This document shows positions 55,843 through 57,437 of a stretch of 64,000 bases of DNA, one piece after another. Under the pieces are notes generated by a model, which searched no databases, was not told the origin of the DNA, and worked only from the letters and a program-made list of their open reading frames with translations. Positions within the stretch are counted from its first letter, which is position 1, and every line of letters starts with the position of its first letter. Origin of the DNA: Escherichia coli (GTDB taxonomy: Bacteria; Pseudomonadota; Gammaproteobacteria; Enterobacterales; Enterobacteriaceae); NCBI RefSeq assembly GCF_030384885.1, contig NZ_CP128613.1. The stretch is one strand, 5' to 3'. The translations under genes and the position numbers were made by a program.

Positions 55843-56640
55843 ATGGACATTCGACTATTAGCAACGCTATGGTTATGGAATATCTCCCCTCGATTAGTCG
55901 TTATCGTCACGACCATTGCCTTCTCTTCCTGCTCGTGGGCTCGACTCACTCCCTGTAACAGTAAATCCGATATTGTTTGCCTGCAGTTGCGTGCGCAGCA
56001 AGGTAAATCATCGGATCAATACGATCTTGCATGGATATATCTAAAAGGGGATGGTGTAACGCCTAAAGATGATAAAAAAGCGCTGTACTGGTTTCGTAAA
56101 GCTGCAGAGAATGGTATGGCGGGAGCGCAGTATCGTCTTGGACGCCGTTATTATTCAGGTGATGGGGTGACATAAAATTATAAAGAAGCTTTTAACTGGT
56201 TTATGAAAGCTTCCGGGCGGGAAAATTCCTGGGGAATAGCCGCCGCACGCTACATGGTTGGGGTAATGTATTATCGTGGGCAGGGGGTTGAAAAGAATTA
56301 TACTCATTCTTTTTCCTGGTTTATGAAGTCGCTGAACGGGGCAGGTCGAGAGAAAGCAAGTAGGGCTTGCTACTTTATCGGTTCACAATATCTCAGTGGT
56401 CATGGCGTTACGCAAAACAACGACCTTGCCGTTGCCTGGTTTTATCTTGCAGCAAAATTAGGTTTGCCAGAGGCAATAGAGTATATATCGGGAATAGAAA
56501 AGCAATTCTCAGCGGAAATGCTCAAGCCCGCAAGAATCGAAGCGAACAGAATTAATGCCAAACATTATCTTGTACAGATACCTTTCCCGGAGTTATTGGC
56601 AGAGTCTGCGGCGGAAGTTGTAGTGAAGGGGGCAAAATGA
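55843..56640 (+). pseudogene. Sel1-repeat (TPR-like) protein with N-terminal signal/lipoprotein-like segment, interrupted by an in-frame TAA at 56173..56175
   Basis: ATG at 55843 with AGGAGG 6 nt upstream. Four Sel1-type repeats (e.g. GDGVTPKDDKKALYWFRKAAENG; GQGVEKNYTHSFSWFMKS). The TAA falls where a repeat normally continues (GDGVT*NYKEAFNWFMKAS) and the downstream ORF 56203..56640 is in the same frame. Confidence 0.6.
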
Positions 56641-57437
56641 AAAAAAGCGTATTGGCGTTCTCAATGCTATTTTTTAGCTATGCTGTCTACGGGGGTAATA
56701 GTATAGTGCCTCCGGCGAAGTATATGTCTTCGGATGCACTACCTCTCCAGATTGTCTACCGTTTTGACGATCACCGTTATATCATTTTAACAGGTGAAAA
56801 GCGGCATTACGACGGTGTTGATTATTGTTCAGGTCAATACTGGTATACTGATACACAAAAAAATATATTTTCCCGTGTTGGCGATACGCGTCACAACAAA
56901 TGGGTTCCGGAATCCATTGGTTCACGTTCTGCAATCACTCCCTCATATGACAGTCCACTTCCTGAAAATATAAAGTTTATTCATGATTCTGAAAAGTATA
57001 TTTTTGTACCTCTGGGGGGCGATCCACATAAAAAAGATAAAAATGGACAACTGATTTATGAATACCATGAAGTGCAAATGTCATCCGATTATGGCGCGAC
57101 CTGGAAAGATATCAACTTATCGGTTGAACCCGCGACCAGTGATACGCGATTGATTTTTCATGAGGGCCAGCTATTTATTGATGATAAGGATGGGTTTTAT
57201 CTCAGTCAAATCCCGATGCATAGTTTTTTTATGTATTATTATGATTATCACAGTCAGAATAATGATGTTAATCTGCCCAAAAATGTACCAGTCATTAAAA
57301 ACTATCGCGGTTGGGATCACATGCAGTGTTCAGAAAATGCAGAATTATCTGTAGAAGAGGCGGAACGTTTTCAACAAGATCGCCAAAGAAGTTGGGATTC
57401 CTGGGGCCGAAAAGGTGATGAAAAAAACTATAAGTAA
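56637..57437 (+). CDS. Hypothetical secreted protein (signal peptide; Asp-box/BNR-like SxDxGxTW motif)
   Basis: 266 aa; MKKSVLAFSMLFFSYAVYG signal peptide; SSDYGATW motif; ATGA overlap with upstream Sel1 gene suggests translational coupling; AT-rich composition. Confidence 0.6.
   Translation: MKKSVLAFSMLFFSYAVYGGNSIVPPAKYMSSDALPLQIVYRFDDHRYIILTGEKRHYDGVDYCSGQYWYTDTQKNIFSRVGDTRHNKWVPESIGSRSAITPSYDSPLPENIKFIHDSEKYIFVPLGGDPHKKDKNGQLIYEYHEVQMSSDYGATWKDINLSVEPATSDTRLIFHEGQLFIDDKDGFYLSQIPMHSFFMYYYDYHSQNNDVNLPKNVPVIKNYRGWDHMQCSENAELSVEEAERFQQDRQRSWDSWGRKGDEKNYK

Follow-up and report, generated by a model that had tools for sequence, protein, structure and literature searches.

Gene content of the eutR-hemF island

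The 64,000-nucleotide stretch of Escherichia coli DNA analysed here (the window) is core chromosome, carrying bepA, hyf, eut, a small island, hemF and amiA. The island lies between eutR and hemF and includes a Sel1-repeat pseudogene and a tli3-like gene on the plus strand, followed by a 221-aa open reading frame (ORF) and a DUF1963 gene on the minus strand. The subject of this report is the tli3-like gene, whose product belongs to the Tli3 family of type VI secretion system (T6SS) immunity proteins and which has no toxin gene beside it. The gene and the features within it are the following:

56637-57437, plus strand: tli3-like gene, intact in the window, encoding a 266-aa exported Tli3-family protein of a divergent 'long' non-lipidated subtype
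56637-56693, plus strand: predicted Sec signal peptide of the signal peptidase I (SPase I) type, residues 1-19, from sequence reading and hydropathy profile
57081-57104, plus strand: Asp-box SSDYGATW, residues 149-156, a hairpin between model strands 145-149 and 157-160
57015-57059, plus strand: subtype-specific insertion GGDPHKKDKNGQLIY, residues 127-141, placed by alignment just before the Asp-box strand

The 266-aa protein

The ORF at 56637-57437 had been taken as real in the earlier note and stands as such, opening with an ATG start codon and giving a product of 266 aa. The signal peptide claimed for it agrees with a signal-peptide-like N-terminus, in which MKK is followed by the hydrophobic SVLAFSMLFFSYAV and then by YGG, and the hydropathy profile contains no second hydrophobic stretch in the protein. 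As read from these residues, SPase I is likely to cleave after AVYG, before the following G. At least 74 of 97 homologues have a lipobox Cys, which is missing from the 266-aa protein and from its Escherichia albertii orthologue; a minority of homologues (some Rahnella copies) carry AxA-type SPase I sites instead of the lipobox. The sole cysteines of the 266-aa protein, Cys64 and Cys231, are both conserved across the Tli3 family.

The Asp-box SSDYGATW was reported earlier as single, and no other S-x-D-x-G-x-T-W occurs in the protein or in any window ORF of at least 100 aa; the chance expectation, by composition, is about 4e-5 per protein of this size. It is also the most conserved motif of the family: among 118 sequences S was found in 118, D in 111, G in 118 and T in 111, and the final position is W in 98 of the 118 and F in the remaining 20. 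The other family motifs retained in the 266-aa protein are QVVYRFDDHRY, C-G-WYTDT and WDHMQC.

Family assignment and fold

The 266-aa protein is a member of the Tli3 T6SS immunity family. The Pfam model for Tli3 (PF24316) matched it with an E-value of 1.2e-15, residues 36-162 aligning with positions 4-102 of the 129 in the model (hmmscan), and the identical RefSeq protein WP_000750241.1, which occurs in strains 2013C-4282 and 2017-02-2CC, has the product name 'T6SS immunity protein Tli3 family protein'. The island region of strain 2013C-4282 is 99.9% identical to the window. NCBIfam and PADLOC searches gave zero matches for the 266-aa protein and for the 221-aa and 417-aa proteins of the island, and a phmmer search of the PDB with the 266-aa sequence alone returned nothing; the Tli3 crystal structure (8BOZ) was reached by profiles only, 8boz_B being matched by homologue profiles at E 5e-5 (9 sequences) and E 3e-6 (118 sequences). 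Similarly, hhalign comparison of CFT073 Tli3 with the 266-aa protein gave a probability of 96.8% and an E-value of 2.4e-10.

An AlphaFold2 model of the monomer was built from the 118-sequence alignment (predicted local distance difference test, pLDDT, 77; predicted template modelling score, pTM, 0.74) and used in place of a 9-sequence model that was too poor to use (pLDDT 51). The predicted structure has 14 strands and a C-terminal helix, in keeping with the small beta-rich protein that had been anticipated. The top eight Foldseek matches in the PDB are all Tli3 chains of 8BOZ, with E-values of 2e-6 to 4e-5 and template modelling (TM) scores of 0.36-0.48, and propellers rank after these, at E 2e-3 or worse, as weak and partial matches. 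According to the model, the 266-aa protein has the Tli3-type fold, which in 8BOZ consists of three stacked beta-sheets. The statement that the gene could not be assigned to a known system is therefore superseded by the PF24316 match, the RefSeq name, the profile matches to 8BOZ and the top structural match, and the Asp-box, being real and conserved in the family, marks a Tli3-type beta-sheet core and not a sialidase-type propeller.

The characterised member of the family, Tli3 of adherent-invasive E. coli (AIEC), is a 274-aa outer-membrane lipoprotein that inhibits the phospholipase A1 Tle3 in a 1:1 ratio (PMC9860674). In 8BOZ, a 17-residue loop of this protein and three more loops enter the catalytic crevice of Tle3, the plug-loop being residues 133-150 (PMC9860674). 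Compared with the common 230-250-aa type, the 266-aa protein has insertions at residues 54-63, about 83-111 (of low model confidence) and 127-141, and it lacks a segment of about 40 residues (DDPR..PGG..WG) found in the common subtype after the SSKPF motif; furthermore, it has a 26-residue C-terminal helix (residues 239-264) that is confined to three 'long' lineages. The insertion at 127-141 coincides, in the hhalign alignment, with the gap holding AIEC Tli3 residues 133-152, where the common subtype is short. Judging from this alignment, the hairpin of residues 127-141 would be the equivalent of the crevice-plugging loop of AIEC Tli3 and a specificity determinant.

Tle3 loci of the family

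Family neighbourhoods were obtained from one genome per species, giving 67 loci, which were annotated by ORF calls and by phmmer and HMM searches seeded from known loci. Enough upstream DNA was available for 56 loci, and in 54 of these tle3 directly precedes the Tli3 array; the usual order is vgrG-tle3-tli3 (one to six copies)-PAAR, followed by a membrane protein of about 480 aa. Enterobacter loci found via the protein database have the same vgrG-tle3-tli3-PAAR layout.

The closest relative of the 266-aa protein outside Escherichia, at 45% identity, is the long Tli3 of an Enterobacteriaceae metagenome contig (L008), which has the order vgrG-tle3-tli3 (232 aa)-Sel1 (290 aa)-Tli3 (265 aa)-PAAR. 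The Sel1 protein of this locus is 33-39% identical to the Escherichia Sel1 over its full length, including the distinctive C-terminal tail, and its Tle3 and VgrG are 76% and 87% identical, respectively, to those of Escherichia sp. ESNIH1. Because of this gene order, it is concluded that the Sel1 and long-Tli3 pair originates from the immunity end of a genuine Enterobacteriaceae Tle3 locus. The earlier note had drawn attention to the pair, which, with its tight junction, does recur in E. albertii, in other Escherichia haplotypes and in this contig. It is not obligatory: the long Tli3 subtype was seen solely downstream of a related Sel1 gene, but Rahnella rivi (L037) and an Enterobacterales metagenome-assembled genome (L071) have a Sel1 lipoprotein gene between the Tli3 array and PAAR with no long Tli3, and in E. 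coli either gene survives with the other broken.

Other arrangements were also observed among the loci. In L037 (9633-11098) and L071 (2567-4029), the genes between the Tli3 array and PAAR encode a 161-aa lipoprotein and the Sel1 lipoprotein of about 325 aa, which may be another immunity pair. In the set L023, L027, L024, L058 and L065, Rahnella Tli3 arrays have up to six copies, Leclercia adecarboxylata NCTC13032 has a fragmented tle3 and then a string of Tli3 fragments, and Zoogloeaceae loci have a tandem tle3-tli3-tle3-tli3 order. The CFT073/AIEC order (L076:22194-29183, CFT073 T6SS-1) is vgrG-tli3-tle3-PAAR, with the immunity gene first; the membrane protein of about 480 aa follows PAAR in both locus types and is about 23-25% identical between them. 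A second orphan Tli3, of the common subtype and with the lipobox LIAC, was found in Escherichia sp. MOD1-EC7003 (L041:3035-3994), where tle3 is absent upstream. Its flanks, read from translations, hold what are presumably transposase-like ORFs, one IS630-like and one an ISAs1/H-repeat-like fragment, and it follows an ORF that we take to be DUF2169-like; L041 may be a truncated effector locus.

Absence of a toxin gene

No Tle3, VgrG or PAAR ORF was found in the 64-kb window, and the tli3-like gene is not adjacent to tle3, its neighbours being eutR, the Sel1 pseudogene, the 221-aa ORF and the DUF1963 gene. At the genome level, L008-type and Enterobacter-type tle3 queries gave zero blastn matches in 5426 complete E. 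coli genomes. With a chimeric query made of the island and the CFT073 tle3, AIEC-type tle3 was found in 96 complete E. coli genomes and in neither of the two island carriers, both of which matched the query at one place, the island. By its position the gene is thus an orphan, not a cognate, member of the family, and within the reach of the DNA searches it is also an orphan in its genome.

The complete island is present in two of the 5426 complete E. coli genomes, and the DUF1963 gene at the eutR-hemF site in 28 of them. The GC content of the island (55736-59588) is 43% and that of tli3 39%, tli3 and the 221-aa gene together spanning 36-39%, whereas the window as a whole has 52.8%. The minus-strand genes of the island are:

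57472-58137, minus strand: 221-aa hypothetical protein, convergent with tli3 and conserved in E. albertii (ratio of nonsynonymous to synonymous substitution rates, dN/dS, 0.28)
58197-59450, minus strand: 417-aa DUF1963-domain protein, the last island gene (Pfam DUF1963, E 5.7e-5, at the C-terminus)

The 221-aa protein had zero matches in Pfam, NCBIfam or PADLOC. The eutR-hemF gap is a variable spot: the small gene accompanying the DUF1963 gene is the 221-aa ORF in some genomes and often a different one, a 105-aa hypothetical gene unrelated to it. The arrangement with the 105-aa partner was observed in E2348/69 and others (L077:1613-3233; L078:2642-4262), its counterpart in the window being 57472-59450 on the minus strand.

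The Sel1 gene and its junction with tli3

Upstream of tli3 lie the following features:

55843-56640, plus strand: Sel1-repeat gene, a pseudogene in the window, with Sel1 repeats present and TAA at 56173-56175
56625-56640, plus strand: junction, a Shine-Dalgarno-like GAAGGGGG and then the ATGA stop/start overlap at 56637-56640

The TAA at 56173-56175 replaces the Lys codon AAA of E. albertii and other E. coli and splits the gene into 55843-56175 (110 aa) and 56203-56640 (145 aa), so that an intact exported Sel1-repeat protein is not encoded in the window. Intact orthologues are 265-284 aa long and were found in E. albertii (L006), in L079-86, and in L099 and L100. The ATGA overlap with the Sel1 gene described earlier does exist at 56637-56640; however, because of the nonsense codon, in the window it is an overlap with a pseudogene remnant. 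The junction is a 4-nt overlap in E. albertii and a 1-nt overlap in L008, and since overlaps of 4 nt or 1 nt are the rule between successive genes of Tli3 arrays, the ATGA overlap does not count as particular evidence that the two genes work as a pair. Scans for promoters and terminators around the Sel1-tli3 pair gave results no better than shuffled sequence, and the PDB matches of the Sel1 protein were generic Sel1 proteins only, with no specific link to PA5087 or Sel1E.

The Sel1 N-terminal region differs between E. albertii (L006:7150-7330) and E. coli (window 55764-55960) by 5-nt and 3-nt indels, as a result of which the start codon and frame of the first 40 or so residues (the signal/anchor region) are different in the two species.

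Age, selection and erosion of the island

The four-gene island also occupies the eutR-hemF site in E. albertii, where Sel1 and tli3 are both intact. Between E. coli and E. albertii, tli3 has a dN/dS of 0.15 and a dS of 0.58, similar to the dS of hemF (0.54) and eutC (0.47), and the dN/dS of the Sel1 gene is 0.19. Because the dS of the island is like that of the flanking core genes, the island predates the split between E. coli and E. albertii, and for most of the time since then purifying selection has acted on it, despite its low GC content. The island seems to be an old acquisition, the base composition of which has not converged on that of the host.

A haplotype survey of E. coli-like genomes gave seven groups:

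Group 1 (window, L002, L087, L088): Sel1 with a stop at codon 111; tli3 intact
Group 2 (L001, L089-L092): Sel1 with a 1-nt deletion at nt 446; tli3 intact
Group 3 (L093-L098): Sel1 with a stop at codon 41; tli3 intact
Group 4 (L079-L084): Sel1 intact; tli3 with a single-A deletion at nt 403 (A6 run)
Group 5 (L085, L086): Sel1 intact; tli3 with a single-A deletion at nt 221 (A8 run)
Group 6 (L099): Sel1 intact; tli3 intact
Group 7 (L100): Sel1 intact; tli3 intact

Each gene thus persists with the other broken, and neither needs the other to stay open. No locus with both genes broken was found among the seven groups, and the counts of two, five and zero haplotypes with zero, one, and two or more lesions fit recent neutral erosion, so that no functional rule is read from them; a functional mutual exclusivity of the Sel1 and tli3 lesions is not claimed, both genes being intact in L099 and L100. 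The exact 266-aa protein of group 1 is present on 541 contigs.

In E. coli lineages with an intact tli3, Sel1 was disrupted on at least three separate occasions (window 55843-56640; L001:6144-6940; L093:1707-2504), and frameshifted tli3 (L079:6795-7594; L085:3295-4094) accompanies an intact 265-aa Sel1 gene.

Proposed role and alternatives

The tli3-like gene is proposed, with a rough probability of 0.7, to be an orphan immunity gene whose periplasmic product counters a Tle3-type lipase coming from neighbouring Enterobacteriaceae. Tle3 is a phospholipase injected by a T6SS into the periplasm of a rival Gram-negative cell, where Tli3 proteins bind and block it. The 266-aa protein would be exported via the Sec pathway and would probably stay soluble in the periplasm, because the lipobox Cys of most relatives is missing. 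It would fold there into a Tli3-type beta-sheet core, probably with a Cys64-Cys231 disulfide, and would insert surface loops into the substrate crevice of the incoming lipase, as in the AIEC Tle3-Tli3 crystal. Its role would be defence against Tle3-armed neighbours and not self-protection. Membership of the family, the fold, the export-type N-terminus, the tie between the family and tle3, the lack of a toxin gene beside tli3 and the evolutionary history are shown here, whereas Tle3 binding, the Tle3 variant targeted, and present expression and protection are inferred. The island is a remnant of the immunity end of a vgrG-tle3-tli3-Sel1-tli3-PAAR cluster, lost by most E. coli and eroding in those that still have it. 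With Sel1E as a precedent and a DUF2345 domain in the VgrG of related loci, the simplest view of the Sel1 partner is that it would be a second, independent immunity gene.

Several observations weigh against this proposal. The identity of the 266-aa protein to the sole characterised Tli3 is 14-18%, and the Foldseek TM-scores (0.36-0.48) are modest. Because its surface is remodelled by the insertions, the loss of the segment of about 40 residues and the extra C-terminal helix, it may differ in specificity or even in target. Also, the long Tli3 in L008 is not the toxin-adjacent immunity gene, the genome-wide absence of tle3 rests on a DNA-level search with three tle3 types, and the nonsense codon in the upstream Sel1 gene may reduce tli3 expression via polarity. 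Finally, over 99% of complete E. coli genomes lack the island, which together with the five independent lesions suggests weak present-day selection.

These last observations lead to a possible but unlikely alternative, which overlaps with the orphan immunity reading: that tli3 is a relic, open in the window lineage yet useless, in an island that is dispensable and being lost. The presence of the complete island in two of 5426 genomes, the five independent single lesions (Sel1 codons 41 and 111 and its 1-nt deletion; tli3 nt 221 and nt 403), the Sel1 partner already being a pseudogene in the window, and the cognate toxin type not being found in the E. coli carriers (DNA searches, three tle3 types) are what such a relic would leave. 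However, tli3 was kept under long-term purifying selection (dN/dS 0.15 over a dS of 0.58), the exact 266-aa sequence was kept on 541 contigs, haplotypes with both genes broken were unseen, each broken gene having one lesion, and selection on orphan immunity genes is expected to be episodic.

A dedicated two-protein module made up of Sel1 and the long Tli3, for example with Sel1 as a membrane-anchored scaffold for the non-lipidated Tli3, is doubtful. Three lineages with protein identities as low as 45% (E. coli, E. albertii and L008) keep the tight junction, neither gene is broken in E. albertii, L099 and L100, and the long subtype was seen only downstream of a related Sel1 gene, all of which would suit a functional unit; nevertheless, such overlaps are common to Tli3 arrays in general, the Tle3 loci L037 and L071 have related Sel1 genes without a long Tli3, each gene in E. 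coli survives intact beside the broken other, and Sel1-repeat proteins are known as stand-alone T6SS immunity proteins, such as K. pneumoniae Sel1E against VgrG4 (PMC7108748). To the same small extent credible is a novel two-gene cassette against a Tle3 variant or another periplasmic effector of gut Enterobacteriaceae, in which the hairpin 127-141 would be the plug and Sel1 would act as co-immunity or anchor; if so, single-gene survival in E. coli would be partial redundancy and not plain decay.

It is improbable that the Tli3 fold has been retargeted to a different periplasmic effector, not Tle3, or to an undescribed Tle3 class. The heavily remodelled surface, with its three insertions, large deletion and C-terminal helix relative to the common subtype, would agree with this, as would the toxin-distal position of the long Tli3 in L008, after another Tli3 and Sel1 and beside PAAR and the membrane protein of about 480 aa, but all conserved family motifs are kept and every locus context found is a Tle3 locus. 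Asp-boxes occur in non-propeller folds too, and the suggestion of a small secreted BNR/Asp-box glycan-binding or sialidase-like protein, arising from the BNR/sialidase-type propeller link made previously, is very improbable and was rejected: there is one Asp-box where a several-bladed Asp-box protein would have more, the closed propeller is absent, the best sequence and structure matches are all Tli3, which outranks propellers in Foldseek, and the genomic company is always T6SS.

Implications

The 266-aa gene is no longer an apparent unknown: it is a T6SS lipase-immunity homologue, already named in RefSeq. The Tli3 family, its crystal structure and its use in annotation were known before; the new elements are a divergent non-lipidated Tli3 subtype with a constant Sel1-repeat neighbour, the tracing of the Sel1/long-Tli3 pair to a real vgrG-tle3 locus, and a clean natural case in which an old orphan immunity island is disappearing bit by bit from E. 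coli but stays intact in E. albertii. If the protein still protects, carriers, among them the lineage of human stool isolate 2013C-4282, would resist Tle3-armed gut Enterobacteriaceae.

Comparison with known systems

Tli3 of AIEC LF82/CFT073 (8BOZ chain B, PF24316), the immunity protein of the Tle3 phospholipase A1, shares the family and 14-18% identity with the 266-aa protein. It is a lipoprotein of the outer membrane, and its gene stands between vgrG and tle3 in the T6SS-1 cluster, whereas the 266-aa protein has no lipobox Cys and no neighbouring toxin; in addition, the Asp-box of the AIEC/CFT073 protein is degenerate (TTDGGKRR), while the 266-aa protein has an intact one and the extra C-terminal helix 239-264. 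The common Tli3 arrays of Enterobacter, Rahnella, Serratia, Leclercia and others, located downstream of Tle3 (PF24322), are closer, with 23-39% identity over the whole protein and all motifs in common, including the full Asp-box and both cysteines. These are toxin-adjacent cognate or array genes of 230-250 aa without the insertions and C-terminal helix of the 266-aa protein.

In Pseudomonas aeruginosa, PA0261 likewise goes by the name Tli3; it is a periplasmic immunity protein of a Tle3 lipase and is described as homologous to Tsi6 (PMC6560169). Given this published description, PA0261 probably belongs to a different family from the 266-aa protein, and the name may cover two unrelated protein families (PA0261 and PF24316).

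Orphan T6SS immunity genes and islands are a known concept from Vibrio cholerae, Bacteroidales and others. The eutR-hemF island is like them in having no toxin beside the gene, a low GC content (39% for tli3 vs 52.8% for the window), a patchy distribution and immunity-type neighbours; unlike them, it does not lie within any obvious mobile element and is old at its site, with a dS like that of its flanks.

For the Sel1 partner, the known counterparts are Sel1-repeat T6SS immunity proteins, namely Sel1E against VgrG4 and P. aeruginosa PA5086-5088 against PldB, and the partner here is likewise an exported Sel1-repeat protein. In K. pneumoniae, Sel1E neutralises the DUF2345 domain of VgrG4 (PMC7108748); similarly, the related Tle3 loci of Enterobacter (L003-L005) have a VgrG with a DUF2345 domain, and Sel1 is found between T6SS toxin and PAAR in L008, L037 and L071. 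Unlike Sel1E and PA5087, the Sel1 gene of the window is a pseudogene, and its PDB matches are generic Sel1 proteins.

The BNR/Asp-box propellers (sialidases, GH74 and the sortilin Vps10 domain) have in common with the 266-aa protein the S-x-D-x-G-x-T-W hairpin and blade-like four-stranded sheets, but they carry several Asp-boxes in a closed propeller, whereas the 266-aa protein has one Asp-box within the Tli3-type arrangement and no closed propeller.

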